Source: a bacterium
GTDB lineage: Bacteria > Patescibacteriota > Patescibacteriia > UBA1558 > S5-K13
NCBI GenBank assembly: GCA_029555085.1
Contig: JAKPTO010000001.1
Span: 1 to 39,220, forward strand
Reading direction: 5' to 3'
Length of the DNA stretch: 39,220 bases
The notes beneath the pieces were generated by a model, which was not told where the DNA came from, searched no databases, and saw only the letters and a program-made list of their open reading frames with translations. Positions 11,877 through 37,875 of this stretch are shown one piece after another. Made by a program: the position numbers and the translations under genes. Numbering within the stretch: position 1 is the stretch's first letter; each line of letters opens with the position of its first letter.

Positions 11877-11881
11877 TCACA

Positions 11882-11889
11882 TATTTATA
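11882..11889 (+). promoter_or_regulatory. TATTTATA upstream motif
   Basis: 10 nt upstream of ATG 11900. Confidence 0.5.
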
Positions 11890-11899
11890 GTAAAAACTC

Positions 11900-13753: not shown

Positions 13754-14290
13754 TTAGAAGATCAAAAAATGTAAAATAAAAAAAGTATTAATTTTTTTGA
13801 TCAATTCAATAGTTCGTTTAAATTGTGTATTTTCTTTTATTGTTTTCTTTTGTTCTGTTAAATCGATAATATCGTCCGGTGATGGTTCATTCACAATAGG
13901 GACAGTATAACCATATCTTTTCTGAATATATTTATCTATTTCTTCTTTATAATATCCTAGTAATTCACCAATTTCACGAGCCTCTTCCGATGTTTTATCA
14001 GCTAAATATCCATTATTTTTTCGTGCGATTTCATATAACCTCAATGCTTTTTCTTTGTTACGATATACAATAGATTTCATTTCATTTATACCTATCATTC
14101 GTATAGGTATAATACCAAATTTATACTTTTCCAAAATTTTCCTGAATCTTTTGGATATTGTCATATACGCAACATCACGTTTTCCCTTAATAAGTGTTAA
14201 TAATGACCCTTCATCTGTACTAGCTTCACTGGGGTGAATTTCTTCGTTTAATAATGTATTGTATCTTTCAAGAAGGGATAAACGACTCAT
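13754..14290 (-). CDS. hypothetical protein carrying a scaffold-like C-terminal helix (candidate internal head protein)
   Basis: ENTQFKRTIELIKKIN matches the scaffold end ENPQFKRMKELMKKIN. Also LLNEE near the N-terminus and TATTTATA upstream (14306-14313). Confidence 0.65.
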   Translation of the reverse strand: MSRLSLLERYNTLLNEEIHPSEASTDEGSLLTLIKGKRDVAYMTISKRFRKILEKYKFGIIPIRMIGINEMKSIVYRNKEKALRLYEIARKNNGYLADKTSEEAREIGELLGYYKEEIDKYIQKRYGYTVPIVNEPSPDDIIDLTEQKKTIKENTQFKRTIELIKKINTFFILHFLIF

Positions 14291-16978: not shown

Positions 16979-16994
16979 GTTTAAATATTTCATA

Positions 16995-17026
16995 CAAATG
17001 TATGTATAAAAAATGAAAAAACCAAA
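16995..17026 (-). promoter_or_regulatory. Bacteroidota-type sigma70 promoter (TTTG-N20-TACATTTG)
   Basis: Minus strand: TTTG at 17026-17023, 20-nt spacer, TACATTTG at 17002-16995. Confidence 0.6.
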
Positions 17027-17097
17027 TATTTCCCCTTTAATTTTACACCAAACAAATAAAAAAAAATAAGAAAATTTTATGACACTTAAAGAGTATA

Positions 17098-17130
17098 TAA
17101 AAAAATAAAGGGGTGATAACACCCCTTTAT
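17098..17130 (-). terminator. intrinsic terminator of the major capsid gene
   Basis: ATAAAGGGGTG-TTAT-CACCCCTTTAT followed by a T-run on the minus strand. Confidence 0.85.
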
Positions 17131-20573: not shown

Positions 20574-21266
20574 TTATTTTGAAAGAAAATTATCTAATCT
20601 TCCCATTAATGATTTAATTTTATTTTCTTCTGGGGTATTTTGTGGTATGGTTTCTTCAAATTTCGCCTTATCATTTAAATCACTAAATACATAAGCGCCG
20701 GGGGTTGAAGGTGACGAAACTAAATCGAAACAAACTAATTCAAAATCATCTTGAACAACGTTTTGTCCTCTTTCACTTTTTAATGAACCAACACCACGAG
20801 AGGATATACCTAACGTCGCACCATTCATTAATAACATTGCAGCTTGATCACCTTTACAACTAATGATACCACTTTTTTTCCAGCCAGGTGATGTGTATAA
20901 TTTAATTTTACCAAGTAAAGTATTACCCTCCCACCAAGTTTCGAGAATTGAATGTGAAACTCTATCTAAGTCAATAAGTGATGATGTGGGATGATTAAGT
21001 TCACTGAGAGCACCACCGTTTTTTATTACAGTTTGATATTTTTCATTTTCTCGTTTTAAAATTGCTTCGGGATATATTCTACCGTTTTTATTTGGCACAC
21101 CAAATTTTTGTAACACAGCATAAAGAATGAGGTCTTGGTGGAAATCGACCTCTTTCATTTCAGAAATTATTTGCTTGTTATGTTCGTCGTTTGGAGAAAT
21201 ATGACCGGCGTCATATTCTATCAAATATCCAAAAACACCAATATCGTTTGGTCCTAATATCTTCAT
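20574..21266 (-). CDS. prohead protease, T4 gp21-like
   Basis: NKNGRIYP, ELNHP, RVSH, GISSRGVGS and DLVSSPSTPGA. Confidence 0.95.
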   Translation of the reverse strand: MKILGPNDIGVFGYLIEYDAGHISPNDEHNKQIISEMKEVDFHQDLILYAVLQKFGVPNKNGRIYPEAILKRENEKYQTVIKNGGALSELNHPTSSLIDLDRVSHSILETWWEGNTLLGKIKLYTSPGWKKSGIISCKGDQAAMLLMNGATLGISSRGVGSLKSERGQNVVQDDFELVCFDLVSSPSTPGAYVFSDLNDKAKFEETIPQNTPEENKIKSLMGRLDNFLSK

Positions 21267-22561: not shown

Positions 22562-24430
22562 CTATTGATTTAAAATATCTTTTATTTTATTTTCTATTTC
22601 ATAAATATTCTTTTGCGCTTTTTCCATATCAAATAAATCATTTAACGAAGTATCTTCATTTAACATTGATAAAATTTTTTCTTTTTTTGTTTCGTTTTCT
22701 GATAACGGAGCAGCGGGTTCGTTTCCTGTTGGTGCTGGGCCCGCATTAGTTAAAGGTCCGGCCGCAGCTTCTTCAGGACTCATCATTGTACCACCACCAA
22801 ATCCCGGTTTACCATCAGGCATTTGTCCTTGACCACCCATAGCAGCCTCAATTTTCTTTCTCTCTTCTTCTGGTATACCATATTTCTTGTCCACATCGTC
22901 AAATATACCAGAACGTCTAATAATTTGTGGTGTGTTTGTTAATTCCATTCCAATTGCTCTTTCCAATCTTTGTTGTTGTAAATCAAGAATTATTTCGTTG
23001 TCACTCATACCCAAAATATTTTTCTTAGCCCATGTGTGAGAAACTGGAAGAATACCCATTTGTGATTGATCAGATGTGGCATCTTTATACATTGTGATTT
23101 TTTCTTTCCAAGATTCAATTCGTAAAAGATCCGACTGTCCAGATGGATTAGTTAATGATAATGTGAAATTATTTAGTTCGTCTTCAAGACCTAATAGAAA
23201 TAAATGTATTAAGGCAATTTTATTTAATTCTTGAATTAATGACATTTGAATACGATTAATCGTTCTGGCAAAACGAATATCTAATAATGCCAAGCCCTTA
23301 CCATTACCAACAACATCTTCAAACCCTAGAAAAGCTTTTGGTATTCGAAGAGCAGCCAACATTTTCTTTTGGATATATTCAATGTCAGCGATTTCCGCTA
23401 AGTTTTGTGCACCGGGTAATGTTTCAATTGGACTTGCTTGTGATGGATCTCGAACTGGAATAAAATAATCTTGATCTACAGCCATTTGATTATATCTCAT
23501 ATCAACTTGTCCTGTTCTTTGATCAACCACTTGGTCTCTTTTAAATTTATTTGCTATTCTTTGTACATATGCTTCTATGTCCTTGTCGTCCATATTACCA
23601 ACGAATATTTTGAAAACTCTTCTTTCGGGTGCTCTTGAAGTTCGATAAATTAACATAGCATCTTCAGCTAAAAGTAATTGTTTCCAAATTCTTCGGATTT
23701 TATCTAACATTGAACACCCATATGGTAATTTTCTATCATCACCAAGGATTCGAAAGTGGGCGATTTCCCACGCCTGGAACTCCATATCTTTATTTTTCCA
23801 AGTAAACCTCAATTCTCGTGTTGGAAATCTACTACCAACACGGTCACTTTGATTTGGGACTGACTGTCTTGCGCCTTCTAATCTTTCTATTTCAATATTT
23901 GGTAATTGTTGACAACCAATAACACCCTTATCCGGACTAACTTTTAGATAAACAAAGTTATCGCCATATTTACACATTCCTCTAGCCCACATTACCAAGT
24001 TGGTGTTAATGTCCAGGGCGTTATAGAAAAGGTCATCTAGTATATGTTTTATTCTTTTCGAATCAGAATGTATCGTAAGAATTTGACCCTTTTCGGATTT
24101 GGTTGTTGATTCTTCAGCATAAATATCAAGTGCGGCAGATATTTCTGGAGTGAATTCCATTGATTCATAATCATAATATGCTGATAATCTATTGGGTTCA
24201 TAATATACCGACTGATTATAAAGTGACATATCAAGTTTTGACCACTTATCTGCGATATATTGTGATTGTTGGGCTTGTAGTTTTGCCTTTTCGTAATCCT
24301 CTCGACTATCAGTTTTTAATAATTCTTTTTTATCAAATTCAAATTGTGAGGGTGGATTTCTCAATTGCCCAGCAAATCCAAAGGCTTTGGTTAACCTTTG
24401 ATATATTGTTAATTTCTGTTGTTTTGCCAT
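22562..24430 (-). CDS. portal protein, T4 gp20-like
   Basis: EDAMLIYR.SRAPERRVF.I.VGNM, IETLPGAQNL..I.DIEY and ALRIPK. Confidence 0.96.
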   Translation of the reverse strand: MAKQQKLTIYQRLTKAFGFAGQLRNPPSQFEFDKKELLKTDSREDYEKAKLQAQQSQYIADKWSKLDMSLYNQSVYYEPNRLSAYYDYESMEFTPEISAALDIYAEESTTKSEKGQILTIHSDSKRIKHILDDLFYNALDINTNLVMWARGMCKYGDNFVYLKVSPDKGVIGCQQLPNIEIERLEGARQSVPNQSDRVGSRFPTRELRFTWKNKDMEFQAWEIAHFRILGDDRKLPYGCSMLDKIRRIWKQLLLAEDAMLIYRTSRAPERRVFKIFVGNMDDKDIEAYVQRIANKFKRDQVVDQRTGQVDMRYNQMAVDQDYFIPVRDPSQASPIETLPGAQNLAEIADIEYIQKKMLAALRIPKAFLGFEDVVGNGKGLALLDIRFARTINRIQMSLIQELNKIALIHLFLLGLEDELNNFTLSLTNPSGQSDLLRIESWKEKITMYKDATSDQSQMGILPVSHTWAKKNILGMSDNEIILDLQQQRLERAIGMELTNTPQIIRRSGIFDDVDKKYGIPEEERKKIEAAMGGQGQMPDGKPGFGGGTMMSPEEAAAGPLTNAGPAPTGNEPAAPLSENETKKEKILSMLNEDTSLNDLFDMEKAQKNIYEIENKIKDILNQ

Positions 24431-24479: not shown

Positions 24480-27400
24480 TTATTTTTTCTTTGGACCAAA
24501 TAACCATGAATATTCTTGATACATTTGTTTCGTATATATCATTCTATCATTTTGAAATAATGGATTTTCAATTGGTCTACCTGTATTTGCATCTATAACG
24601 CCAAAAGGATCAAAAGCTTTACCATAAGAATAAAAAGATTTTTCCGGTTCATATGTTCTTTCAGATAACATCCAAGAATCTATTATTGCTTTATTTTGTA
24701 AATCATTTCTAACTAATTGTGTAAAACAGATATCACCAACAAACATTGCCATGGCTATTGACATAATAGAATCGTCGTGAGTTCCTTTCATATGGTCTGG
24801 CTTTCCATTAATAAAAACAAATGTATTCATTTCATTAGCTAGTCTCACTGAATTGACTTTAAATCCGTTACGTATTTGTTCTTCAAACGCCGCAACTATT
24901 TGTGTTCTTTTGTTATTGAAACTTATTCCAGGTATTTTTTCCATCAATTTTGCATCATATTCCCACACATTTTGTGTATTAATACCATCAATATATAGGT
25001 TTTTGTATTGCATTTCTTGAAGTTTCCTTGCTGTGGCAATTCCCATACCGCCCGTAATATCAACAACAATATAAGCTTGATAAATTATACCCCATTTATA
25101 TGCTACTGATGCAAGATCATCAGGCGGAATTTTTCCAATATATTCAAGAACTTGTTCACGTTCATCAAAGTCAATAATATTAATTGAAGAATAGTCTTCA
25201 CTATCTCCCCTTGATACGTCAACTCCCATAATATAACGATGTCCTAGTATTGGTTCTTTCCATTGCCACATTTGTCCCATCATATACTTTTCTTTAGGAT
25301 CACAGACATCTTCTTTTAATATTTTTTCTATTAATTCTGCTGAGACTACGTTATCACCAGAGCCAAGAAACGCGGCTTCAATTTCTTGATTGATTTTTCG
25401 TTTATCATACTTGAATTTTTTGGCCATATTTTCAAACCACGTGGAATATGGTTTATAACCATCATGTATTAGTTGTTCAAATTTATCTTTATCGGTTTCA
25501 ATTAGTGTAATTTCTTCATCATTATATTCATCACGATTGAGCATATAATGAACAATATCTTTACATTTTATCCATTTTAAATCTTTAGTATAGCGCGGGT
25601 CATTATACCACTTCAATTCGGTTATTTTAAAGTTATTAGCACCACGAGCGGCTTGTTCATATATGCCATAATATATGGGATCAAAACCATTTGGTGTTTG
25701 ATGCCCCAATAAACCATTATAAAATATTGAATGACACCATATATCATTATTGTCATTATATAATGAAAAATCAAAAGTTTCGTTTTCCGATTCTTCGATT
25801 TTTTTTATTTTAATCCATTTAGAATTTTCAAAGAAAATTTTGTCAAAGATATATTCATCTATTTCAATATTTTTATTTTTTAAAAAATCAATAAATAACG
25901 AAAAAGATTTTCTACTTATAGATTCAACTTTATTAAATTGATCATAAATTCTTTTTAATTTTATATCAAGATCTTTTCGTTTAATATTATTTTTAAGAAG
26001 AATATTTTTTATTATTTCAGAACTATTTGGTATAATATCCAATGAATCATTATAATCATCTGTATATTTTTTTAATATATTAAAGTTGACTTCTTTTCTT
26101 TTGAACCTAAATCCAATTTTTTCATTAAAAATTTTAGTGTAATTTGAATTACATGTTAATCTAAAATTGCCTGAATATTCGGTTAAAATTCCGAAATTTA
26201 ACAATAATATTCTTATTTGTTCTATAAGTTTTTTTGATGATAAACTTATTCCTATTCCAGATTTTTCAAACTGAATATTACTATCAAATATACCTTGAAG
26301 AAGAGCGATTATGTTTTCTCTACTCATTTCAAGTAGTCTATTGGGTATTATTTTTTCGGTAGCTTTTAATTTTAAATCAAAACCCAAAAATTCTAGAAAA
26401 GAATATAAACTTTTTGATGATATTGTATAATATAAATCATCGTGATAAGAATAAGATAACCCCACATTTTTTATTGTTTTATGAAGTTCATTATCACATG
26501 TTAATGTAATATTACAGTCTATTATTTTGTTTTCATTATTAAATTTTCGATAGACAGAACCCATAGAAATATATAAACCAATTAAATATGCAATATCGGG
26601 TGTTATTTTTTGTGGAGAAAAAATATTAGATTCATTTGTTGATGGAATATACTGGAAATTAATGTCATCATTTTTTCCCCATTTTTCAAATCCATAATTT
26701 ATATTAACATAATCACCAACATTTAGATCTTTTAATTGATACCAGTCATATTTTTGTGATTTATTTGAGTATCCCCATAATTTATGTGTTTTAGTACCTT
26801 CAAGTATCGAATTGTCGGTATAAATTTTTAATGTTTTTTGAATACCATTATTAACAACAATATTAGATGATCTAAATTTATTTTTACCAAGAACAGAATA
26901 ATCATTTGTGATATATCCAGTATGTGTGGGCATTTTTTCATTAATAAATGTAGATAATTGACATGGACCATTTGGTGTGAAAACATATGTGTCTTTTGTT
27001 ACACACGAAATTAATATAACTTTACCACCAGTAGAAAGTGAAGCCATTGATGCCGCCCAGAAATCTTCACCTGCTTCAATATATGCTGCTTCGTCAAATA
27101 TTAAAATTGTTGGTGTATAACCACGAAGTGCGTCTTTAGATGTTGCGACAGCTTTAACCTCACAACCATTATTCATTTTGAATCTTTGCTCCGAGTTTTT
27201 ACTTTGAGAAAACCCAACATTAATCCATAGTGGCCATTGATCAAGAAAAGCCCTAATTTTATTGGCCATTTCAACCGCAGTATCTCTTTTGTTTGCAACA
27301 ATAAGAACTTTTTCAGGTTTTTCTGGTTTTGCTGTTTGTATTACTTTTGAAACCCAAGCTGCGGTAACTGTAGTAACCCCAGCCTGACGATATTTTCTTG

Positions 27401-27578
27401 TTATGTTTTCGTTATATTGTTCATAATCATTTATTAATTGTATCTGGTCGGGGAATAAGTCAAACGGAACATATTTACTTTGCGTATTATCATAAGTTTG
27501 TAAATACGTTTTTATCGCATATGGTGTATCTTTAATAATGCGAGCATATTCTTTAAGTTGTTCAATTCTTGGACTCAT
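24480..27578 (-). CDS. terminase large subunit (gp17-like) interrupted by an intein
   Basis: RQAGVTT (Walker A), LIFDEAA (Walker B), ILIS|TPNG split by the intein, GVDVSRG and HDD nuclease motifs. Start MSPRIEQ at 27578. Confidence 0.93.
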   Translation of the reverse strand: MSPRIEQLKEYARIIKDTPYAIKTYLQTYDNTQSKYVPFDLFPDQIQLINDYEQYNENITRKYRQAGVTTVTAAWVSKVIQTAKPEKPEKVLIVANKRDTAVEMANKIRAFLDQWPLWINVGFSQSKNSEQRFKMNNGCEVKAVATSKDALRGYTPTILIFDEAAYIEAGEDFWAASMASLSTGGKVILISCVTKDTYVFTPNGPCQLSTFINEKMPTHTGYITNDYSVLGKNKFRSSNIVVNNGIQKTLKIYTDNSILEGTKTHKLWGYSNKSQKYDWYQLKDLNVGDYVNINYGFEKWGKNDDINFQYIPSTNESNIFSPQKITPDIAYLIGLYISMGSVYRKFNNENKIIDCNITLTCDNELHKTIKNVGLSYSYHDDLYYTISSKSLYSFLEFLGFDLKLKATEKIIPNRLLEMSRENIIALLQGIFDSNIQFEKSGIGISLSSKKLIEQIRILLLNFGILTEYSGNFRLTCNSNYTKIFNEKIGFRFKRKEVNFNILKKYTDDYNDSLDIIPNSSEIIKNILLKNNIKRKDLDIKLKRIYDQFNKVESISRKSFSLFIDFLKNKNIEIDEYIFDKIFFENSKWIKIKKIEESENETFDFSLYNDNNDIWCHSIFYNGLLGHQTPNGFDPIYYGIYEQAARGANNFKITELKWYNDPRYTKDLKWIKCKDIVHYMLNRDEYNDEEITLIETDKDKFEQLIHDGYKPYSTWFENMAKKFKYDKRKINQEIEAAFLGSGDNVVSAELIEKILKEDVCDPKEKYMMGQMWQWKEPILGHRYIMGVDVSRGDSEDYSSINIIDFDEREQVLEYIGKIPPDDLASVAYKWGIIYQAYIVVDITGGMGIATARKLQEMQYKNLYIDGINTQNVWEYDAKLMEKIPGISFNNKRTQIVAAFEEQIRNGFKVNSVRLANEMNTFVFINGKPDHMKGTHDDSIMSIAMAMFVGDICFTQLVRNDLQNKAIIDSWMLSERTYEPEKSFYSYGKAFDPFGVIDANTGRPIENPLFQNDRMIYTKQMYQEYSWLFGPKKK
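25698..27005 (-). mobile_element. intein (436 aa) with degenerate LAGLIDADG domain, C-terminal His-Gln, +1 Thr
   Basis: Starts CVTKDTYV, block B T..H (TKTHKLW), ends NGLLGHQ/T. Removing it restores KVILISTPNG. Confidence 0.9.
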
Positions 27579-27593
27579 TACATATATAAATAT

Positions 27594-27617
27594 AAAAAAA
27601 GTGGATATTTCCACTTT
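27594..27617 (-). terminator. probable intrinsic terminator upstream of the terminase
   Basis: AAAGTGGA-AATA-TCCACTTT plus T-run on the minus strand, followed by TATTTATA at 27585-27592. Confidence 0.6.
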
Positions 27618-27644: not shown

Positions 27645-29156
27645 TTATCTTTGTTTTCGTTCAATCATTCGTTGGATTCTTTGAGCCAATTCCCAATCTT
27701 CATTATCAATGGCGTTGTTTAATTCATTATTTAATGAACCAAGACTCATTGATGCTAGTTTTTTATCATCTAAATTAGCTGCTTTTGGTGGTTCAACCAC
27801 TGGTTGCTGTGGTATTGATTGTGGTTTGGTTTCGGCTCTACCAATACCAAACTTACTCAAACTATTAAGATATGCTTCAATATCATCTTCTGATGATTCT
27901 TCAGCCCTTTTACCGGTTTTTTTCTCATATCTATCTTTTGACGATTTTGCTTGTTGGAAAATTTCTTTAAATTTATCTGATGCTTTGCGATTATCATTGG
28001 CATCCTGTGATATTACATCTCCAATTATTTCAAGAAATGATCTGGCTGGAATTTGATACAGAAACATATAGAAAAATGGTTTTATTCCGTAGTTTTCTTC
28101 ATTGAACATTTCATTAGGTAATAAATGTCTAATACGGTCAACAAGTTCGGGACCAATTCTCAGTGACATCGCTTCATTGGGTAATGTATCAACACTTTGA
28201 ATAACAGCTTGTCTTATATCAGGATCTTGCGAATAACCAAACTTCCCAAGAGCTTCTTCAATACCTTTTATAATTTCATGACATAAAATTGGAAATATTA
28301 ATCCACGGGCAATGATTTGGTGTTCAGGACCCTGATCATTTCTTCCCTCATCGTCATCATCATTTGACCCGGCTTTTTTCTTTTTGGTTTTTAAATTTTC
28401 TCTACCTTCAATACCATGTCCATGTTGTGACATGCTTTGAATCATATCTTCCAATTTAAAATAAAAATAATCATTTATGGCCATTATTTTTAGATAGTAG
28501 CCATAAAGAGATGGATCAATTTCGTCTAATTTTTCACGTATTTCGGGTTTTTGAAAAATATAATGACCTTTTTTAGACATCCCTTGAATAATACCATTTA
28601 TGATATTTCTTTTATGCTTTTCAAGTTCAAATTGTTCACCTTTTGTTAAATTTTCAGCTTCAAATTGTCCTTCATCTGGCAATTCAAAATCCTCATCTTC
28701 TTCAGGTGGATTGTCTTTGGGTTTAAATTGAAAACCCTCGGAACTAATTTCACCAGGTCCACCAGTTAATTTTGCATCAATTTCATATTTTCCTTCTGGT
28801 GTTTCAGTAAGTTCAAGACAAGATTTTATTGCCAATTCTTCCAATTCAGCTTCGTGATAATTTTCAATTTCTTTAGCTCTAAGTACAGATGACATAAATT
28901 CTCTTTGTATTGATTGTATCACATTTGCACTATTTAAATTGGGGGCGTTCATAACATCCCTTAATTTATCAACAATTTTTTTAAATCTATCAGAACCCAA
29001 TCTTTCAACATCAAGCGAACCACGACGCATCGCTGGATTAGTACCATAAAGATTTTTTTCCGGATCACCTAACGCTCTTTCTGTTTTTGGATCCATTCTT
29101 TCAGGATAATCACCATAATCGATTTGTTCTCTAATTTTTTGTTTTAATTTTTTCAT
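27645..29156 (-). CDS. hypothetical protein with C-terminal UVR (UvrB/UvrC)-like motif
   Basis: Ends ELNNAIDNEDWELAQRIQRMI; N-terminus KIREQ; internal LCHEIIKG. Confidence 0.7.
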   Translation of the reverse strand: MKKLKQKIREQIDYGDYPERMDPKTERALGDPEKNLYGTNPAMRRGSLDVERLGSDRFKKIVDKLRDVMNAPNLNSANVIQSIQREFMSSVLRAKEIENYHEAELEELAIKSCLELTETPEGKYEIDAKLTGGPGEISSEGFQFKPKDNPPEEDEDFELPDEGQFEAENLTKGEQFELEKHKRNIINGIIQGMSKKGHYIFQKPEIREKLDEIDPSLYGYYLKIMAINDYFYFKLEDMIQSMSQHGHGIEGRENLKTKKKKAGSNDDDDEGRNDQGPEHQIIARGLIFPILCHEIIKGIEEALGKFGYSQDPDIRQAVIQSVDTLPNEAMSLRIGPELVDRIRHLLPNEMFNEENYGIKPFFYMFLYQIPARSFLEIIGDVISQDANDNRKASDKFKEIFQQAKSSKDRYEKKTGKRAEESSEDDIEAYLNSLSKFGIGRAETKPQSIPQQPVVEPPKAANLDDKKLASMSLGSLNNELNNAIDNEDWELAQRIQRMIERKQR

Positions 29157-30145
29157 AAATAAGATTTCATTAATGTGATTATTTTATTTTTTGCATCCTC
29201 AGCTGATATTATATTTTTATTTCCTGCTTTTGGATTTGGATCCACATCAGGAAAAGGATCTTTAAACGGATCATCTATATTTGGGTCTGGTGTTGGATTT
29301 TCTGGATCATAACCGGGATAATCTGGCACCGGATAGTCGGGAACAATTTCCGGATCACCTTTTTCAACGCCAACCCTTGTTCTTGCTTTTGGATTTGGAT
29401 CAACATCAGGAAATGGATCTCTAAAAGGGTCGTCAGGATCAATATCGGGCCTAGTTTTAGTATCTGGTTCAGTTTCAATTTCTGGTTCTGCTGGTTTTGG
29501 TTTAACCAATACTTCTTGTTCTGTTAATTTTTTTTGTATTAAATCAATTATTTCATTTTTTGATGTAACAAATTTATTTTCAACAATTTTATTAACCCAA
29601 GTTTTGATTTTTTTATTATTTCCATCGACAACAGGTATATTTGTCATTGGTTTAGTCGTTTGTTCAACAGGTTCACCTACCATTTCTTTCTTTTTACTCA
29701 TTTTCTTATCATAATATTTCTGAGCTTTTTCAGGGATGGGCTCACCAATATTTTTAAGTAAATCTATTTCAGATTTAATACATTCATTTTTCTTTATTTT
29801 ACTATCAATTTTAAAATTAATTCTTTTTAAAACTTTTTCTCGTTCACTATCTATTTTTTTCTTAGGAGCACCTTTTAATTCGTTTTCCTTCACTTCACCT
29901 TCATATGTTGCAAATGTTTTTTTCTGTGCTTTTGCTTTGTTAATTGTTGCGGTGTCTGTTTTTGGGATATTAAGAACCGGTGTGTCACCACTTGTAGTAC
30001 CATAAGCCGTTGTGGAAATAGTACCAATTTGTTCAGACAGAATTCTATCAGATAAAGCCTTTAATTGTTTATCGGTTAAATTAACCAATGTTTTTTGTGA
30101 AAACCCTTCATTTATTAGTTTTGTTATTATATCTTGTCTTTTCAT
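29153..30145 (-). CDS. hypothetical Pro/Asp-rich protein with a 17-aa duplicated motif
   Basis: DDPF(R/K)DPFPDVDPNPKA occurs twice. Sites ILSEQ and LTEQ. Confidence 0.75.
   Translation of the reverse strand: MKRQDIITKLINEGFSQKTLVNLTDKQLKALSDRILSEQIGTISTTAYGTTSGDTPVLNIPKTDTATINKAKAQKKTFATYEGEVKENELKGAPKKKIDSEREKVLKRINFKIDSKIKKNECIKSEIDLLKNIGEPIPEKAQKYYDKKMSKKKEMVGEPVEQTTKPMTNIPVVDGNNKKIKTWVNKIVENKFVTSKNEIIDLIQKKLTEQEVLVKPKPAEPEIETEPDTKTRPDIDPDDPFRDPFPDVDPNPKARTRVGVEKGDPEIVPDYPVPDYPGYDPENPTPDPNIDDPFKDPFPDVDPNPKAGNKNIISAEDAKNKIITLMKSYL
29225..29434 (-). repeat. two 51-nt in-frame direct repeats (29225-29275, 29384-29434)
   Basis: They encode DDPFKDPFPDVDPNPKA and DDPFRDPFPDVDPNPKA (16/17 aa identical). 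Confidence 0.85.
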
Positions 30146-30543
30146 GTGAGTTTGTATTTAATTTCATCATTTATTAGTCTAAGTCCTTCAGATTTTAGTT
30201 TTTCAGTTACACTTTCTACTGTTTCACCAAAATGAAATGACAAACGTGGTTTTAGTGTTTCAGATTCAAAATCAAATTTTTCCCAACCTAACGCAATAAT
30301 ACCCTCAACAGCATCAATAACACCAAAATAATCAGAATTCTGAACCAAATCAAGATCTAGATCAGAATTTTTCAATAAACCAACCAAGTCAATATGTTCA
30401 ATTTCTGGCGGTTTTGATCTTCCCGATGATGGTATTACTAACCAATCTTCTTCAATCACATCTTTGTCTTTACCAAAAATAAATTCATATTGTCTCTGAC
30501 CTTTATAATCTTTTCCTAGTTCGTTAATGTATATTAAGTACAT
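30142..30543 (-). CDS. hypothetical protein
   Basis: 133-aa ORF with start and stop overlapping its neighbours. Confidence 0.75.
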   Translation of the reverse strand: MYLIYINELGKDYKGQRQYEFIFGKDKDVIEEDWLVIPSSGRSKPPEIEHIDLVGLLKNSDLDLDLVQNSDYFGVIDAVEGIIALGWEKFDFESETLKPRLSFHFGETVESVTEKLKSEGLRLINDEIKYKLT

Positions 30544-31706
30544 TATTCAAAATATTTTCCAAGAGTTTCTTTAACGCCAGTGGCTATCATGTTATTTAAT
30601 TCATCAAGATCAATCTCTCTAATTTCATCTTCTTCATCTGGCATAGTTTCCATATATTCACTAATATCTTCTTGGTCATCAAATTCTTCTGCATTAGGAT
30701 TTTCAGTGTTACTTGTCAAACCATATTCTTCATCATTAAACTCATCAAAACTTTCATCCTCATCATTAAAATCCTCAGCATCAAAATCACGTTTTGCATA
30801 TGCTTCAGCTTTTTTATCTAAGAAATCTAATTCACCAAAATCATCATCCTCATCATCAAAATAGGTTGTAGTATCAGTATCATAATAATCATCAAATGGA
30901 TTTGAACTAATCAATTCTTCTAATGCTGCCATACCATCACTTTCACCAAGATCATCTTCCGGTGGTGCGACCTCACCCGGTAATTCATCACCAGGTAATG
31001 AATCATTATTTACTTCATCATCAGGATCAATTTTATCAAGAATCTCTTCTTTATCAGCTTCTTCAAGTTTTTTAAGATCTACAGCCGATAATATCATATT
31101 GATAACATATTTAATGTCTTCACTTTTTATTTTATCCTCATAATCTCTTAATCTTTCACCAAGTTTACCTGTTAATTTTTGGATTATTTTTAAATATTCT
31201 TCTTCGGCTTCAGGCGATGGTGACATATCATTATCAACATCATCTTTAGGCATACCTGGAACTTCTTCCCCAGCTGGGGGCATTGTTGTATCATCTGGCG
31301 TCGCCATTGGTGGTGGCGTTTCGCCGGTTGGCATTGGTGCTGGGGCTTCTTCCTGTGGTACAGGTTTAGGTCGTTTTAACACATACTTTGTTGCTTCTTC
31401 AAGTTTTTCTTGTTCGATAAGAAATTCGAGTTTCTTATAGGCCTGGGCATAAGATGAAAATTTATTTTTATTTTTCATAAACAATCCACCAATATAATCT
31501 AAAGATTGTTCATTTAATCCTTTTTTTACATAGTATCCGTCTTTTTCTTTAACAATACCATATACAGCACCATTTTTCGATTCTTTTATTGTCTCAGCAG
31601 GAATACCAGTATTGACTTCCGTTTGATAATATGTGAGTTCAAGAATGCGTTTTAATTTATCGTCACCCGATAATTTCTCACTTCCAAGTGGTTTTAATTC
31701 TCCCAT
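30543..31706 (-). CDS. acidic, Pro-rich hypothetical protein (candidate internal head protein)
   Basis: 387 aa with long D/E tracts and (L/I)xE sites. Confidence 0.75.
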   Translation of the reverse strand: MGELKPLGSEKLSGDDKLKRILELTYYQTEVNTGIPAETIKESKNGAVYGIVKEKDGYYVKKGLNEQSLDYIGGLFMKNKNKFSSYAQAYKKLEFLIEQEKLEEATKYVLKRPKPVPQEEAPAPMPTGETPPPMATPDDTTMPPAGEEVPGMPKDDVDNDMSPSPEAEEEYLKIIQKLTGKLGERLRDYEDKIKSEDIKYVINMILSAVDLKKLEEADKEEILDKIDPDDEVNNDSLPGDELPGEVAPPEDDLGESDGMAALEELISSNPFDDYYDTDTTTYFDDEDDDFGELDFLDKKAEAYAKRDFDAEDFNDEDESFDEFNDEEYGLTSNTENPNAEEFDDQEDISEYMETMPDEEDEIREIDLDELNNMIATGVKETLGKYFE

Positions 31707-31783
31707 TTTAATAAATTTAATTATTTATTATTCATTTAGCAATAAATACAACAATAAGTTGAAAAATATTATATGTAAATCAA

Positions 31784-33067
31784 TTAAATAAAATCTTCAT
31801 CTTCTTCTTCGTATGACTTTGGTAATTTTCCATCATTGTAATAGGATTTAATTCCATTAATTATGAAACTTTCAGGTGTTCCAAAATCATATTCTACATA
31901 AGCATCTTCGTTCATTTCAACATTTATCTTACCATTTTTCTTTCTAATTAACAAACGAATTTTTTCAAACTGCTCTTGTGTTGGTATATGATACATATCA
32001 ATAGTATTTGCTTCTGGTAAAAATCGAATAAATCCCATATCCATAACAACCATCTTGCCATATGAAAACAAATTTCTTTGCCGATCATTTTTATATTTTC
32101 CAATATCGATACCGGATTGATCTACGATATATGATATGTCACGATGATCTATAGTACGAGAACCACCACCTTCAGAAAAATCTAATAAATAACCACTAGG
32201 TGTAATGTATCCAGCGGCATTAAATGAACTAGTTTCACCATAAAAATTTCGTGCTAGTTCTTCTATTTTTAATGTGTCTCGATAAGTAAAACTTTGTGGT
32301 TGATGTGATTCAGTTATAGAAAATTTTTTATCTGTAATTTCTTTTCTAAGATCAATTAATTTTTTGATATATCCGTTTCTTCTGAGTAATTTAAATGTTA
32401 AGTTTTCATACGAATATTCACCACCACCATCAAGTCCACTCTGTCTGAAACGTTTTATTTTTTTTCTAACTTCTTCAATATCACTTCTTATATCTATTCC
32501 CTCTTTACCTTTTTCTATTAAATCATCAATGATTTTTGCATATTCTTCACCTTTTTCTAGTATTTTGCGATCATCAATTGATTTCTTTTCTTTTTGTGGT
32601 TCAATAATCCAATTATAATTTAAAATGGAATAAACACCACTAGCTATGTGTTTTTCTGTAACATCTTGCACATAAACCTCAACTTCGTAATTCTTGATTT
32701 TAATATCATGTAAAGCATTCCACACACCTTTTTTTGCATTGAAGAATTCTTTTAATAAATCGATGTTATGATTTGTATCTTCATAATCAATAATGATATG
32801 TAAATCAACATCAGAAAATTCCGACCAGTTGTAATTGGCTAATGAGCCGGTTAAGACCACATCATGAATAAAAAATTCAACACCAAGAAAATCGATGAAA
32901 TTATCAGATATTTCTAACAATCTTTCTCTAACAGCAGGAATCATTTCATATCTGTTACCTACTTTTTGAAAAATATCTTTTGATAAAGTTTTTTTAGAAT
33001 AAAAAGTTTTTACTATTTTTTCGTTTTTTTCTTTATCTTCTGATAATTCATCAACTAGTGATTTCAT
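31784..33067 (-). CDS. Pol-beta superfamily nucleotidyltransferase fused to an uncharacterised C-terminal domain
   Basis: LTGSLANYNWSEFSDVDLHI (GS...DxD) plus a third acidic strand EVEVYV. Second domain after ITES: GYITPSG...DH...GFIR. Confidence 0.75.
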   Translation of the reverse strand: MKSLVDELSEDKEKNEKIVKTFYSKKTLSKDIFQKVGNRYEMIPAVRERLLEISDNFIDFLGVEFFIHDVVLTGSLANYNWSEFSDVDLHIIIDYEDTNHNIDLLKEFFNAKKGVWNALHDIKIKNYEVEVYVQDVTEKHIASGVYSILNYNWIIEPQKEKKSIDDRKILEKGEEYAKIIDDLIEKGKEGIDIRSDIEEVRKKIKRFRQSGLDGGGEYSYENLTFKLLRRNGYIKKLIDLRKEITDKKFSITESHQPQSFTYRDTLKIEELARNFYGETSSFNAAGYITPSGYLLDFSEGGGSRTIDHRDISYIVDQSGIDIGKYKNDRQRNLFSYGKMVVMDMGFIRFLPEANTIDMYHIPTQEQFEKIRLLIRKKNGKINVEMNEDAYVEYDFGTPESFIINGIKSYYNDGKLPKSYEEEDEDFI

Positions 33068-33309
33068 GTAATTCGTTTGTATTTAAAATTTCTACTTATT
33101 TCTTTACTAAAAAATTTACCATGGGATTTTGCCATTCTAAATTTAGTGAATAAAGCCCAAGGTATCTCATAATATTCATAAATACTTCCATTCTTGAAAG
33201 TAATCGTTAATACCTTAGTAGATGTGTCGTAAGACGCAAATTTTAAATTTGATGATTGAACTTCAACATTAATTGTTGTTCCCGAAATTTGTTCTGAAAT
33301 AATCGGCAT
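33064..33309 (-). CDS. KTSC-domain protein
   Basis: VQSSNL....YD....L.I.FKNGSIYEY..IP.........SHGKFF...I. Start set at MPIISEQ because the longer ORF begins in a terminator. Confidence 0.85.
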   Translation of the reverse strand: MPIISEQISGTTINVEVQSSNLKFASYDTSTKVLTITFKNGSIYEYYEIPWALFTKFRMAKSHGKFFSKEISRNFKYKRIT

Positions 33310-33349
33310 ATCTTTAATTTTTATCATAATATACATAAAATACTTGAAA

Positions 33350-33380
33350 TAAAAAACCCTGACGATAAACATCAGGGTTT
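33350..33380 (-). terminator. intrinsic terminator
   Basis: AAACCCTGA-loop-TCAGGGTTTTTT on the minus strand, after 33400-34179. Confidence 0.75.
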
Positions 33381-33399
33381 AAAAAATTAAATAAAATTC

Positions 33400-34179
33400 T
33401 TACAACATTTTTTTAAAGATATAGCACATTTCTGCAACCATATTGTTAGCCGAATCTGTCTCTGGCATGATTTCATCAAGATATTCAATTAAAAATTCAA
33501 GATCTTTTGATAATTTCATAATGTCATTTTTATCTTCTACAGTATTAAGACGACCCATAATATCTCTAATAAATTTTTTAATTTGGTCCTTTTCACTTAT
33601 TTGTTCGGGTTCAGTTATAACCTCATCATCACCTGGAGTATTTAATGGCTCTGATTTTATGACTGACCATCTTTCAGGATTTGTGATACCTTTAGCACGC
33701 AGGGCAGTTTCTCGTGATTTGGCGATTTCATCTCTTTTTGAGCCAATTTCATTTCCCAAGTCTTTTTTTATCGCAGCTTCTTCTGGATTTGCAATTCTTT
33801 TATGTATGATTTCCAAACATAGTTTTTTAAACTCATTTTTTGGAGTGTTTTTATATTTTTCATATACTTGAGTCTGCATTTCATTGGGTCTATTTAAACC
33901 ACCTCTTCCATCCAAATAATCAAAATTAGACGTTTGTTGATTGAATGAGGCTACGCTACTACCAATAATCTTATGTGCAATGTATAACTTACCTCCCATG
34001 CCAAGATCATCAATACCATATAATGAATTATACATAGCTAGCATTTGGTCGCCTTCATTCCATTCAGACTTCCATTGACCCTTACGGCCATATTCATTTA
34101 TATCAACGTCATCTTCTTTAATTACATTTTTAATAATGCGTTTTAACTCCGATTCCGTAAGTCGTATAAATCTTTTCAT
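33400..34179 (-). CDS. hypothetical protein with leader IRLTESELKRIIKNVIKE
   Basis: 259-aa ORF sharing its leader helix with the next gene. Confidence 0.75.
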   Translation of the reverse strand: MKRFIRLTESELKRIIKNVIKEDDVDINEYGRKGQWKSEWNEGDQMLAMYNSLYGIDDLGMGGKLYIAHKIIGSSVASFNQQTSNFDYLDGRGGLNRPNEMQTQVYEKYKNTPKNEFKKLCLEIIHKRIANPEEAAIKKDLGNEIGSKRDEIAKSRETALRAKGITNPERWSVIKSEPLNTPGDDEVITEPEQISEKDQIKKFIRDIMGRLNTVEDKNDIMKLSKDLEFLIEYLDEIMPETDSANNMVAEMCYIFKKML

Positions 34180-34193
34180 ATGATCAAATTAAT

Positions 34194-34511
34194 TTACTGA
34201 TTATCCGATGGAATTCCTTGATCTTGTTCGGGTTCTGTGGGTTCAACTTCAGGCTCAGGTTCTTCTCCGCCTTCTTCCGACCCAAGAATTTTATCGATTA
34301 ATGTTCCAATTGAAATACCTTGTCCCATTAATTCCTGAGCGGCAGCAACAAATGCGTCAAAATTAGGCTCGCCACCTTCATCTTCAGGCGATCCACTTAT
34401 TTCTTCAGGTGCTGGACCAGTTGTTCCTAATTGTTCTTCCTCCTGCTCTTTTAATACTTTCTTTATAATACTATTGAGCTTCGAATCTGTTAATTTTATC
34501 ACTTTTCTCAT
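34194..34511 (-). CDS. small acidic protein with leader IKLTDSKLNSIIKKVLKEQ
   Basis: 105 aa, Glu/Pro/Gly-rich after the leader. Confidence 0.75.
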   Translation of the reverse strand: MRKVIKLTDSKLNSIIKKVLKEQEEEQLGTTGPAPEEISGSPEDEGGEPNFDAFVAAAQELMGQGISIGTLIDKILGSEEGGEEPEPEVEPTEPEQDQGIPSDNQ

Positions 34512-34523
34512 GTTGTAATTATT

Positions 34524-34691
34524 TTAATTATTATTATTAATTTCTGTATTTGTAATCTTTTTTAAATTTTCAATCAGTTCTTCAATAGTATATCCGCTTT
34601 TCAATAATATAGGAATTGATTTCTCAAATTTTTTTTTCCAATGTTCCGTAACTAATGCAGGAACTTTTGAATCGGTTTCTTTTACATACAT
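34524..34691 (-). CDS. 55-aa hypothetical protein (not in the ORF track)
   Basis: MYVKETDSKVPALVTEHWKKKFEKSIPILLKSGYTIEELIENLKKITNTEINNNN*. TATTTATA lies 7 nt upstream (34699-34706). Confidence 0.6.
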   Translation of the reverse strand: MYVKETDSKVPALVTEHWKKKFEKSIPILLKSGYTIEELIENLKKITNTEINNNN

Positions 34692-34716
34692 AACATAATA
34701 TAAATATATGTATTGT

Positions 34717-34746
34717 AAAAAAAAAACTCCCGATGATCGGGAGTTT
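34717..34746 (-). terminator. intrinsic terminator of the Hsp20 gene
   Basis: AAACTCCCGA-TCA-TCGGGAGTTT plus a long T-run on the minus strand. Confidence 0.85.
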
Positions 34747-34749
34747 AAA

Positions 34750-35163
34750 TTATTCTATTTCTATGTATCTTTCTTTGATTTTTTTCTTATCTTTTGGTAT
34801 CACAATTTCAAGAATACCATTTTCCAGTTTACTTGTAATTTCATTTTCATTACAATCGCTTGGTAATGAATATTCTTTTTTAAAGGAATTTGTAAAATAG
34901 AAAGTTTGATTATCGGTTTCTTTTTTCTCATGTGTGATCGACATAACCGAATCAGTAATAGAAATTTTAACATCATCTTTAGATAGACCTGGAACAGCTA
35001 ACTGTACACGATAGTCGTCATCATTTGTCACAATATTCGACTTTCTGTACGCTCTTTCGATATAACTGGGTCTTTCAAAAAAAACATCCAACCAGTCTGA
35101 TAATGGATCATTCCATAGTTTTTCATCAATTGGGTTCTTCCATAATTTTAATCCGTTTTTCAT
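34750..35163 (-). CDS. Hsp20/alpha-crystallin small heat-shock protein
   Basis: YRVQLAVPGLSKDDVKI...F...YSLP......ITSKLENGILEIVIPK. Confidence 0.92.
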   Translation of the reverse strand: MKNGLKLWKNPIDEKLWNDPLSDWLDVFFERPSYIERAYRKSNIVTNDDDYRVQLAVPGLSKDDVKISITDSVMSITHEKKETDNQTFYFTNSFKKEYSLPSDCNENEITSKLENGILEIVIPKDKKKIKERYIEIE

Positions 35164-35871: not shown

Positions 35872-37875
35872 ATGCCTGTAGATTTTTATGAAGATCCGAT
35901 AAAAGATAGTCAGAAGAAAAAAACTGGCTCATCAACGCCCATACTTGATAATTTTTCGCGAGATTTAACAAAACTAGCTGAAGAAGGGAAAATTGATCCG
36001 ATAATTGGACGTGAGAAAGAAATTAAAAGAATTTCACAAATTCTATCACGAAAAAAGAAAAACAATGTTGTTATTGTTGGTGATCCCGGTGTGGGTAAAA
36101 CTGCATTAATTGAGAAATTAGCTTTATTAATACATGAGGGTAAATGTTCGTCTAATCTTTTAGATAAAAGAGTTGTTTCCCTAGATTTGACATCACTTGT
36201 TGCAGGAACCAAATATCGTGGACAATTTGAAGAAAGAATCAAAGGAATTCTCAATGAATTACAAAATAATAGAGATGTTATTGTTTTTATTGACGAATTA
36301 CACACATTGGTTGGTGCGGGTAACGCTAGCGGTTCGATGGATGCATCTAACATTTTTAAACCAGCATTGGCTCGTGGTGAATTACAATGTATTGGTTCAA
36401 CCACATTTGATGATTTTAAGAAATATATTGAAAAAGATGGTGCCTTAGTTAGACGATTCCAGAAAATAATATTAAAAGAGCCATCATTAAGTGAAACCAT
36501 AGAAATTCTTAACACACTGAAAACTTCGTATGAAGATTATCACAATGTGGAATACAAAACAAATGTAATTGAAACGATTGTTTCATTATCAGCCAAATAT
36601 ATAACCGATCGCCAATTCCCGGATAAAGCAATAGATATTATGGATGAATTAGGTTCAGAAAAGAGAATATCGGTTAAAATTCCAGAATCTATTGAAAAAT
36701 TAAAAATAGAAATTGATGAAATCAAAGAACAAAAACTTGAAGTTGTTAGAAATCAGAATTATGAAATGGCTGTTAAATTAAGGGATGAGGAACGTATACT
36801 TATTAAAGAATTAGATACAGAAAAAGATAAATGGGTTAAAAATAAACGAAAATATAAAGATCCTATATCGGTTGAAGATGTGTACGACATTGTTAGTAAT
36901 ATGACCGGTGTCCCTATAGCAAAATTGGATGAATCTGAAACGAAAAATCTTTTAACACTTGAAGAACAACTATCGAGTAAAGTTATTGGCCAAGAAGAAG
37001 CTATTTCAACAATTGCAAAAGCAATAAGACGAAATCGTGTCGGTATAAAAGGTGGAAATAAACCAATCGGATCATTTATGTTTTTGGGGTCAACCGGAGT
37101 TGGTAAGACGTATCTTGCAAAAAGTATTGCCGAAATCTTATTTGGTTCACCAGATAAAGTAATACGAATTGATATGAGTGAATATATGGAAAAACATAAT
37201 GTTTCTAGGCTGATAGGTTCACCACCGGGATATGTTGGATATGATGAAGGTGGACAATTAACAGAGAAAGTTAAAAATAATCCATTTTCTGTCATATTAT
37301 TTGATGAAATTGAAAAGGCACACAATGACGTATATAATATATTTCTTCAAATTCTGGATGAGGGTCATTTAACAGACGCTTTCGGTAGGAAAGTAAATTT
37401 CACCAATACATTAATTATTATGACATCCAATATAGGAGCGAGGAAAGTATCGGAATTTGGTAAAGGTTTAGGTTTTGTACAACCAACTGGTGATAAATTA
37501 AATGAACATAAAAGTTCTATTGTTATGAAAGAATTAAAAAAACACTTTAATCCTGAGTTTTTAAATCGTATTGATGGTGCGATTATGTTCAATCCATTAG
37601 GGGAAACTGAAATAAAAAAAATAATTTCTATTGAAATAGATGATTTAATAAAAAGATTAAAAGAAAAACAATATAATATTAAATTTGACGATAGTGTCTT
37701 GACTAGAATTTATGATTTGAATTCTGAAGAAGAATACGGTGCAAGACCGATTAAAAGAATCATTCAAAATCTTTGTGAAGATTTCTTAAGTGATGAAATA
37801 TTGAGAAATAAAATAAAGCCGAATAAATTGGCAACTATTACATGTAATGAGAATGGAGAATTAGTTTTACGTTAA
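35872..37875 (+). CDS. clpC: ClpC-type AAA+ unfoldase lacking the N-terminal Clp-repeat domain
   Basis: TPILDNFSRDLT, GDPGVGKT, FIDELH, UVR-type M-domain (QNYEMAVKLRDEE), GSTGVGKT, LIGSPPGYVGYDEGG, LGF loop and GARP. Confidence 0.9.
   Translation: MPVDFYEDPIKDSQKKKTGSSTPILDNFSRDLTKLAEEGKIDPIIGREKEIKRISQILSRKKKNNVVIVGDPGVGKTALIEKLALLIHEGKCSSNLLDKRVVSLDLTSLVAGTKYRGQFEERIKGILNELQNNRDVIVFIDELHTLVGAGNASGSMDASNIFKPALARGELQCIGSTTFDDFKKYIEKDGALVRRFQKIILKEPSLSETIEILNTLKTSYEDYHNVEYKTNVIETIVSLSAKYITDRQFPDKAIDIMDELGSEKRISVKIPESIEKLKIEIDEIKEQKLEVVRNQNYEMAVKLRDEERILIKELDTEKDKWVKNKRKYKDPISVEDVYDIVSNMTGVPIAKLDESETKNLLTLEEQLSSKVIGQEEAISTIAKAIRRNRVGIKGGNKPIGSFMFLGSTGVGKTYLAKSIAEILFGSPDKVIRIDMSEYMEKHNVSRLIGSPPGYVGYDEGGQLTEKVKNNPFSVILFDEIEKAHNDVYNIFLQILDEGHLTDAFGRKVNFTNTLIIMTSNIGARKVSEFGKGLGFVQPTGDKLNEHKSSIVMKELKKHFNPEFLNRIDGAIMFNPLGETEIKKIISIEIDDLIKRLKEKQYNIKFDDSVLTRIYDLNSEEEYGARPIKRIIQNLCEDFLSDEILRNKIKPNKLATITCNENGELVLR

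Follow-up and report, generated by a model that had tools for sequence, protein, structure and literature searches.

The window analysed here, a 39,220-bp stretch of DNA that makes up the entire contig JAKPTO010000001.1 (contig C35 of a 53-contig, 1.02-Mb assembly of ~29% G+C), is T4-type phage DNA in which portal, S77 protease and gp23 capsid genes follow the T4 gene order; this T4-like contig was binned in a ~1-Mb assembly of Candidate Phyla Radiation (CPR)/Patescibacteria. The element of interest is a short N-terminal peptide, hereafter the leader, which opens two small, mutually unrelated proteins encoded on the minus strand of the window and which may serve to load them into the phage head. 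It is ~22 residues long and follows the consensus M-(K/R)-(K/R)-x-I-(K/R)-L-T-(E/D)-S-x-L-x-x-I-I-K-x-V-(I/L)-K-E or, in short form, MKKxIRLTESxLxxIIKKxIxE|Q. In the 105-aa protein (34194-34511) the leader spans residues 1-22 (34446-34511, minus strand) and ends in L20-K21-E22|Q23; in the 259-aa protein (33400-34179) it likewise spans residues 1-22 (34114-34179, minus strand) and ends in I20-K21-E22|D23. What follows the leader is referred to as the cargo: in the 105-aa protein an acidic, Pro-rich polypeptide (34194-34445, minus strand; whole-protein isoelectric point (pI) of 4.05) with no [LI]xE in residues 31-105, and in the 259-aa protein an all-alpha domain (33400-34113, minus strand), as seen in an AlphaFold2 (AF2) model. 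In this model, the leader forms a helix at residues 9-19 that gives way to a low-confidence linker, and the core of the cargo, residues 40-165, reaches a predicted local distance difference test (pLDDT) score of >80, mostly >90.

How many proteins of the window carry the leader? A sequence-only reading of this DNA had proposed that a whole series of orphan proteins share it, and all of the peptides that it quoted were indeed found in the translations of the open reading frames (ORFs) named. Profile A2, which was built from 20 leaders with the start Met included, scored 46.5 bits on the 259-aa and 47.2 bits on the 105-aa protein, both of which were among its seeds, and ≤5.4 bits on each of 41 other window proteins. 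The only remaining match, a weak one of 8.9 bits (i-E 0.0028) to residues 22-45, fell in the 330-aa protein (29153-30145), whose N-terminal 38 residues (30032-30145, minus strand) include a leader-like stretch at residues 22-38 ending in L36-S37-E38|Q39. When all six frames of the 1.02-Mb assembly were scanned with a leader regex, four matches turned up; three lie in ORFs of ≥60 aa and coincide precisely with the N-termini of 33400-34179, 34194-34511 and 29153-30145. By profile A2 the proposed sharing is therefore strong in two proteins and weak in a third, and does not extend to the other five peptides listed: copies in the WYL, NTase (nucleotidyltransferase), 503-aa, 975-1586 and 13754-14290 proteins are ruled out, and MKKLKQKIREQ, MKSLVDELSED, IATQLLLEQ, YNTLLNEE and INEDKLEKII... 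are not leader copies. The codons of the two strong window leaders differ at synonymous sites, which argues that selection acts on the peptide; an element working at the DNA level, be it a recombination or a translation signal, is ruled out by the same synonymous differences and by the presence of copies inside proteins. Elsewhere in the assembly the leader motif occurs only on contig C15 (L006), a second phage-like contig, where four genes (6654-7802, 9560-10036, 11758-12075 and 12088-12366) carry a variant that is one residue shorter (MKKxILTE.Q...).

Among relatives, the leader behaves as a portable module. For the 259-aa protein, 32 homologues were found in metagenomes, and Pfam recognizes no domain in any of them; in an alignment of 29 of these (the partial P0008, P0026 and P0032 were left out) the leader opens every sequence, its first residues being absent in two, and is followed by a helix-breaking linker and then by a near-invariant [LIV]-x-E29. 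Five syntenic IMG/VR loci (L001-L005) each carry two to four adjacent, mutually unrelated small leader genes within a gene order that is shared in whole or in part and runs ClpC-like ATPase, small membrane proteins, Hsp20, 55-aa gene, leader genes, KTSC, NTase, 387-aa, 133-aa, 330-aa, 503-aa and large terminase (TerL). The 15 best matches of a core profile devoid of Met all lie in the window or in these syntenic loci, 1-5 residues after a start codon. One and the same domain can occur with and without the leader: the 55-aa family is leaderless in the window, is leader-bearing in L001 (9476-9682), L002 (9435-9668) and L337 (987-1187), and has leaderless members in those three loci as well. In addition, a leaderless paralogue of the 259-aa core is present in L001, and the 105-aa family, with homologues in L001-L005 and L337, is fused behind another domain in P0161. 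On a wider scale, profile A2 retrieved 1,947 clusters at E≤0.001 from 1.84 billion representative proteins, and a complete 296-kb genome contains 18 leader matches at E≤1, 15 of them below 0.001.

Copy counts, Pfam scans and cargo statistics were based on 148 of the best 150 profile A2 matches. In these 148 proteins, 187 leader copies were counted, of which 145 are N-terminal, 36 internal and 6 C-terminal, with two leaders standing in tandem in P0069. No Pfam model falls on the leader in any of the 148 proteins and no PHROG model does so in the 60 of them that were scanned; nor was any description of the leader found in the literature, searched without supplements. Since profile A2 itself contains the start Met, the position count was repeated in IMG/VR with a degenerate DNA pattern running from K(-4) to K(+10) only, with neither the ATG nor anything beyond +10 specified. 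The scan hit at least 128 stretches, and 80 loci with 82 distinct matches were fetched; among these 82 listed matches a Met stands at -5/-6 in 62, within six codons in 17 more and seven codons upstream in the last 3, and only one (L061) is a clear C-terminal copy. The same listed matches mark the end of the leader, as position +13 is I, L, V or M in 81/81 and position +15 is E in 69/81; many of the cases that lack this E belong to a longer variant (…VKESVxRILNE…) with its L-x-E end one helical turn later. In the profile-selected set, +15 is E in 159/177 and +16 is Q in 100/177, no position beyond is conserved, and an internal L-T-E within the leader is invariant. Met was kept at the old start position in 11 of the 36 internal or C-terminal copies compared there, when 10.5% would be expected (p=8.6e-4); this fits fused tandem leader genes that would do no harm as long as each leader is cut off.

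What could cut a peptide ending in this way? The cleavage consensus of the T4 gp21 protease is (L/I)-x-E. Both a gp21-type (Pfam S77) protease and the T4 order of head genes are present in the window, in support of the sequence-only reading: the prohead protease (20574-21266, minus strand) matches Peptidase_S77 (PF03420) with 75.6 bits against a cut-off of 27 and belongs to phrog_207, the gp23-type major capsid protein (MCP; 17153-18886, minus strand) matches PF07068 (Gp23) with 244.4 bits, and an acidic 523-aa protein with conserved [LIVM]xE sites (18921-20492, minus strand) occupies the position of the T4 gp22 scaffold. The (L/I)xE sites that had been pointed out in capsid and scaffold do exist and are conserved. 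Across 32 MCP homologues, LLE4-6 is kept in 78%, IKE21-23 in 100% and INE58-60 in 100%, and in a three-way alignment I58-N59-E60|A61 falls on L63-T64-E65|A66 of T4 gp23, with Glu and Ala invariant; alignment with this E65/A66 site predicts a 60-residue MCP propeptide cut after I58-N59-E60 (18707-18886, minus strand), and the gp23 propeptide of T4 measures 65 residues (PMC5694885). Nine of the scaffold's [LIVM]xE sites recur in ≥90% of its 51 distinct homologues, including ILE6-8 and LKE41-43 in 100%, and at three of the nine the Glu is followed by Gln (I-L-E|Q, L-K-E|Q and L-Y-E|Q), which is the extended motif of the leader end. The leader hence ends in the hydrophobic-x-Glu motif seen both at the MCP site that aligns with the T4 cut and in the scaffold. 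According to PMC5694885, proteases of the gp21 type cut after Glu. As PMC9026906 recounts for T4, internal proteins are targeted to the core by N-terminal propeptides of 10-19 residues, residues 8 and 10 of the 10-residue capsid-targeting sequence (CTS) govern processing, an Asp at position 10 (P1) blocks cutting and leaves targeting unaffected, and Alt bears a C-terminal propeptide as well.

If the leader were removed by such a protease, would its cargo be spared? In the 148 cargos with their leaders masked, [LI]xE occurs 148 times against 172.8 expected from shuffles (ratio 0.86), whereas related patterns reach 1.30 ([LI]xK), 1.10 ([LI]xD) and 1.21 (E-x-[LI]) and the 41 leaderless window proteins contain 231 against 172.7 (1.34). 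The ratio is the same in the 80 IMG/VR loci, whose 116 leader ORFs contain 160 against 186.6 (0.86), compared with 1209 against 970 (1.25) in 406 neighbouring ORFs of the same loci, which serve as a matched control; under a Poisson model with the control ratios, the two low counts have probabilities of 3e-7 and 3e-9. [LI]xD, by contrast, is higher in the IMG/VR cargos than in their neighbours (1.28 vs 1.11), Asp at P1 being the residue that prevents cutting in T4 (PMC9026906). As to what the cargos are, PG_binding_1 was found in 10 of the 148 leader proteins, one of which also has a YkuD/Tlde1-like domain, and the others show no significant Pfam domain, bar a few isolated matches below cut-off. 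The 259-aa cargo has no Pfam match and only the functionally unannotated phrog_21120 among PHROGs; for its structure, Foldseek gave no PDB match at E≤0.001, a VIA wide structure search reached a best Z of 5.8 that reflects only a generic helical hairpin, and the best Atlas score, 0.85, was to unnamed clusters. The proposed acidic and Pro-rich character is only partly distinctive, because 24 of the 44 window proteins have a pI <6 (as do 43% of the cargos), while proline is indeed raised in three of them, 29153-30145 (10%), 34194-34511 (8.6%) and 30543-31706 (6.7%), over a mean of 3.8%.

The 259-aa family points to the scaffold at its other end, too. Many of its members bear a C-terminal extension, …EFKRITEIMKKI or …ITRIKQVMGL, and a hidden Markov model (HMM) made from 18 of these cargo tails alone found, as the best among the 44 window proteins, residues 511-521 of the 523-residue scaffold (12.9 bits, i-E 1.8e-4), which ends in ...QFKRMKELMKKINQ (18924-18962). 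A reverse search with a 22-residue HMM of the scaffold tail against 1,211 proteins returned the scaffold itself only. The protease ends in ...KIKSLMGRLDNFLSK (20577-20621), and a regex that also takes in this conserved tail (…KIKSLMGRL…) matched 43 times, 41 of them C-terminally, against 0.15 in shuffles; as this regex was written once the sequences were in view and the cargo-tail HMM misses the protease, only the link between scaffold and cargo tails is counted. A second portable terminal motif of about [KR]-[IM]-[KT]-x-[LIV]-M-[GK] ends the scaffold and the protease (window 18924-18962 and 20577-20621) as well as about half of the 259-aa relatives (P0004-P0032; for example L003 10001-10783 and L004 9917-10789), and it opens small proteins in relatives (MKKTLIEQRKRILEIMG...; L001 606-875, L003 1654-2343 and L004 995-1783). 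A separate observation concerns the 178-aa protein at 13754-14290 (minus strand), which exceeds the Pfam cut-off for the NleE cysteine methyltransferase effector family (31.2 bits vs 27) and has a conserved C-terminus followed by a short hydrophobic end; its longer relatives contain an inserted domain of ~130 aa. This C-terminus resembles the scaffold tail, with 12 identities over 16 residues in the window pair when compared by eye, but the scaffold-tail HMM scored it at a non-significant 2.6 bits (E 5.4) and the cargo-tail HMM did not match the protein.

The two leader genes of the window form a small operon behind the leaderless 55-aa gene (34524-34691, minus strand), in the order 55-aa, 105-aa, 259-aa. 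Terminator-like hairpins with a T-run, read from the sequence, lie before this operon (34717-34743, minus strand) and after the 259-aa gene (approximately 33351-33377, minus strand), and a promoter-like motif, TATTTATA, stands 8-15 nt upstream of it (34699-34706, minus strand). This motif has 18 copies in the window against 9.8 expected, a number reached in none of 100 shuffles, and the protease, scaffold, portal and TerL genes each start ≤30 nt after a copy. Many genes, every head gene among them, are preceded at this distance by one of its sites (for example 20513, 21280, 24434, 27585 and 34699), and the motif is a candidate late-promoter element.

The head genes themselves, in the order portal, 244-aa, 141-aa, protease, 523-aa and MCP, correspond to T4 genes 20-67-68-21-22-23, the T4-type portal (22562-24430, minus strand) matching PF07230 (Portal_T4) with 263.6 bits. 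TerL (24480-27614, minus strand; ORF and Pfam/PHROG matches), ~1,040 aa long, is interrupted by a LAGLIDADG_3 domain at residues 435-501 that looks like an intein or a homing-endonuclease insert; another large homing-endonuclease-like ORF (15263-17122, minus strand; phrog_3339, E 5e-93) lies directly downstream of the major capsid gene. The closest cultured phages, Flavobacterium phage immuto, Microcystis phage Mel-JY01 and Rhodothermus phage RM378, are distant, with a capsid identity of <45%. In IMG/VR, on the other hand, 145 stretches encode relatives of the protease, and the 80 retained share 72-100% identity with it. A 207,818-bp contig encodes an exact match to the 259-aa protein, and the window is probably a fragment of a genome of at least 200 kb.

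The sequence-only reading had gone further and taken the whole 7-kb block upstream of TerL for packaged cargo, NTase, KTSC, 387-aa and 133-aa proteins included, which finds no support in either the leader profile or conservation. Comparison with homologues revealed nothing beyond ordinary conservation in the NTase, KTSC and 133-aa proteins, and R-I-L-E of the 387-aa protein is R-I-L-D in two relatives. In the 330-aa protein, a conserved stretch made up of the first 40 residues closes with [LF]-x-E-Q both in the window protein and in 5/5 homologues, after which the sequence becomes variable; a Pro/Asp-rich unit (DDPF[RK]DPFPDVDPNPKA) also occurs twice in this protein, ~55 residues apart. The 503-aa protein (27645-29156, minus strand), encoded just upstream of TerL, has no leader copy but a short basic N-terminus with a conserved boundary, I8-R9-E10|Q11 (29127-29156, minus strand): in 11/11 homologues (~7 of them independent) such an N-terminus ends in [LIV]xE before the conserved body, and the boundary is kept even where the preceding residues differ, so that it looks like a short propeptide. 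A UVR-like helix (…EDWELAQRIQRMIERK…) lies near the C-terminus of the same protein.

The more general part of the claim, that (L/I)xE marks the termini of these proteins, fares no better. The motif occurs about once per 50 residues in the window proteome (0.0199 per position), and at least one copy is present in 22 of 44 N-termini as against 163 of 436 internal 25-aa windows (37%), a difference at background level (binomial p=0.059). This is the very outcome that the sequence-only reading had said would refute it, and it pertains to the generic motif and not to the leader. For the extended form [LI]xEQ, 10 of 26 occurrences fall within the first 45 residues, a 3.5-fold enrichment (Fisher p=0.003; 0.007 when the seeds are excluded); this motif was refined after the fact, and its list includes an unlikely candidate, dCMP deaminase.

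Does the leader travel with the protease? Of 17 long leader contigs (85-296 kb), whose summed CheckV completeness is 8.0, nine contain S77; as 8.0 would be expected if S77 were universal, the count fits one protease per genome. These contigs are fragments of ~300-kb genomes (completeness of 29-71% for 85-214 kb, with one complete at 296 kb). Nine long contigs picked by a 16-mer as neutral controls, equivalent to 6.2 genomes, contain S77 in three. G023, the only control with leaders, also has S77, and leaders are absent from two complete genomes that contain S77; the leader thus characterizes a single jumbo-phage clade that bears S77. The window also encodes a phage ClpC-like two-ring AAA+ ATPase lacking an N-domain (35872-37875, plus strand; AAA, AAA_lid_9, AAA_2 and ClpB_D2-small), which adjoins the Hsp20 gene (34750-35163, minus strand) and contains a G-L-G-F stretch that we take to resemble the ClpP-docking loop. 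Because this ATPase and S77 share one conserved core, co-occurrence cannot separate a tag linked to the protease from one linked to the unfoldase. As functional proof, co-occurrence with S77 is weakened both by its presence in 3/9 controls and by the equal co-occurrence of the ATPase.

How, then, might the leader work? On balance, we consider it somewhat probable, from the sequence features described, that the leader of the 105-aa, the 259-aa and perhaps the 330-aa protein is a head-loading tag resembling the T4 CTS and removed by the protease. The proteins would be made together with the head genes, the leader would dock them onto the scaffold or core inside the assembling prohead, and the S77 protease would then cut behind the leader's final [IL]-x-E, and perhaps behind its internal L-T-E too, to free the cargo in the head, from where it may later leave together with the DNA. 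Ejection into the host, as early effectors in the sequence-only reading, is less certain than head loading, the one indirect hint of it being the PG_binding_1 domains in 10 of the 148 leader proteins, and docking, cutting, packaging and ejection are all steps that we infer. What is observed is that the leader is portable, N-terminal and ends in a motif common to capsid and scaffold sites, that cargos avoid [LI]xE, and that relatives of one cargo family carry the C-terminal tail of the scaffold. Portability, N-terminal position, the boundary, the specificity of the protease, motif avoidance, the scaffold-like tail, the shared promoter-like motif, the Met-keeping fusions and the PG_binding_1 cargos all fit head loading. 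A bolder version, which we put forward tentatively and hold to be possible without being likely, is that of a two-tag system in a large clade of uncultured T4-like jumbo phages, wherein a cleavable LTES-type leader and a C-terminal tail copied from the scaffold would load dozens of swappable proteins per genome for delivery to the host, the cargos including peptidoglycan-binding proteins and possibly the NleE-like protein at 13754-14290.

Several points weigh against head loading. The leader helix reaches a pLDDT of only ~65, the window's own 259-aa protein has no scaffold-like tail, and the protease tail is tied to the cargo tails by a post hoc regex alone, the cargo-tail HMM missing it. The depletion of [LI]xE is moderate, and cargos may differ from the controls in their structure. 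The co-occurrence of S77 and leader is confounded by clade, and the ClpC-like ATPase lies 11-18 kb from the S77 protease in 8 of the 17 long leader contigs and in G023. No cultured carrier was found either, as tblastn with the 259-aa protein, a 30-aa leader stretch and P0075 matched nothing in 50,697 phage records, and the S77-positive Flavobacterium phage immuto gave no leader match in a search that yields 8-18 in leader contigs. Finally, 42 of the 187 copies are not N-terminal and some of the C-terminal ones lack the final Glu. It is this last point, along with the tandem in P0069, that would be expected if the leader were a general docking or oligomerization helix that stays uncut and binds a partner unrelated to the capsid. 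We regard such a helix as rather unlikely, for it leaves unexplained why the leader is almost exclusively N-terminal in the IMG/VR pattern scan, why conservation is lost right after [ILV]-x-E, why cargos avoid [LI]xE and why relatives of one cargo bear a scaffold-like tail.

The terminal position is also what one would predict of a recognition tag for the ClpC-like unfoldase (35872-37875) with Hsp20, given that AAA+ recognition tags are typically terminal peptides; the leader proteins would then be unfolded, remodelled or degraded rather than packaged. Both in the window and in L001-L004, the leader genes have the ATPase and Hsp20 genes as neighbours (in L005 the ATPase is present and no Hsp20-like ORF is listed), and the ATPase co-occurs with the leader as well as S77 does. 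Nevertheless, this tag would predict neither the [IL]-x-E-Q end that the leader shares with scaffold and MCP sites nor the depletion of that motif in cargos, internal copies suit it poorly, and the core shared by ATPase and protease deprives the co-occurrence of discriminating power; we deem it improbable. Could the leader simply be the N-terminal domain of an ordinary paralogous family, with chance (L/I)xE motifs in a proteome rich in Glu, Lys, Ile and Leu? The background level of generic (L/I)xE and the low scores of five of the eight listed peptides suggest as much, and for these five non-leader peptides chance is very probably the right explanation. For the leader itself its prospects are slim, since the cargos are unrelated (acidic in the 105-aa protein, helical in the 259-aa protein, and further the 55-aa family, PG-binding proteins and ~1,947 clusters), the window leaders differ at synonymous sites, and the motif recurs only on C15 in 1 Mb. 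That leader contigs come from ~300-kb genomes brings to mind a sorting signal for some other jumbo-phage compartment, such as the phage nucleus or a membrane; the peptide, however, is charged and amphipathic, not hydrophobic, and PG-binding cargos and an end in a protease motif are better accommodated by head loading, which makes a sorting role very improbable indeed.

If the leader does load heads, ~2,000 clusters from uncultured phages would become candidate packaged, and possibly injected, proteins recognizable from sequence, and jumbo phages would be seen to have extended the internal-protein strategy of T4 to at least a dozen cargos in each genome. A natural tag this short could also be tried as a means of bringing foreign proteins into capsids, a use for which the T4 CTS has been tested. 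Should the two-tag system prove true, the leader would provide a handle for listing injected proteins directly from metagenomes, here for a phage binned with CPR/Patescibacteria.

Several known systems invite comparison. Short terminal peptides bring proteins to the inside of capsids in the case of the capsid-binding C-terminal tail of the P22 scaffold, the tail common to the herpesvirus protease assemblin and assembly protein, and the cargo-loading peptides of encapsulins. The scaffold-like tail that ends relatives of the 259-aa cargo is reminiscent of these, its binding to the capsid protein being something we infer, and a difference is that the window's own 259-aa cargo lacks the tail. In the giant phages phiKZ, 201phi2-1 and SPN3US, many head and ejection proteins are cut after S/A-x-E by a diverged gp21-like protease (PMC9026906, PMC5694885). 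Their propeptides, as far as these two sources describe them, are often >100 residues long, share no one portable sequence and have S/A at P3, in place of I/L/V here; like the leader, with its L-T-E and I-K-E, they contain several cleavage sites and motifs (PMC9026906). Closest in working principle is the T4 CTS, which is removed by gp21 from IPI, IPII, IPIII and Alt; homology is not claimed, and the leader system is known from sequence alone. The leader is longer (22-26 residues vs 10-19 in T4), is attached to a dozen or more genes per genome instead of a handful of proteins, and, unlike the CTS, also occurs internally and C-terminally and often precedes acidic cargos. What the two have in common is a short N-terminal peptide on unrelated proteins that ends in hydrophobic-x-Glu, a gp21-type S77 protease, the T4 order of head genes and a set of cargo genes that varies between relatives (for the T4 facts, see the accounts in PMC9026906, PMC5694885 and PMC3012670).

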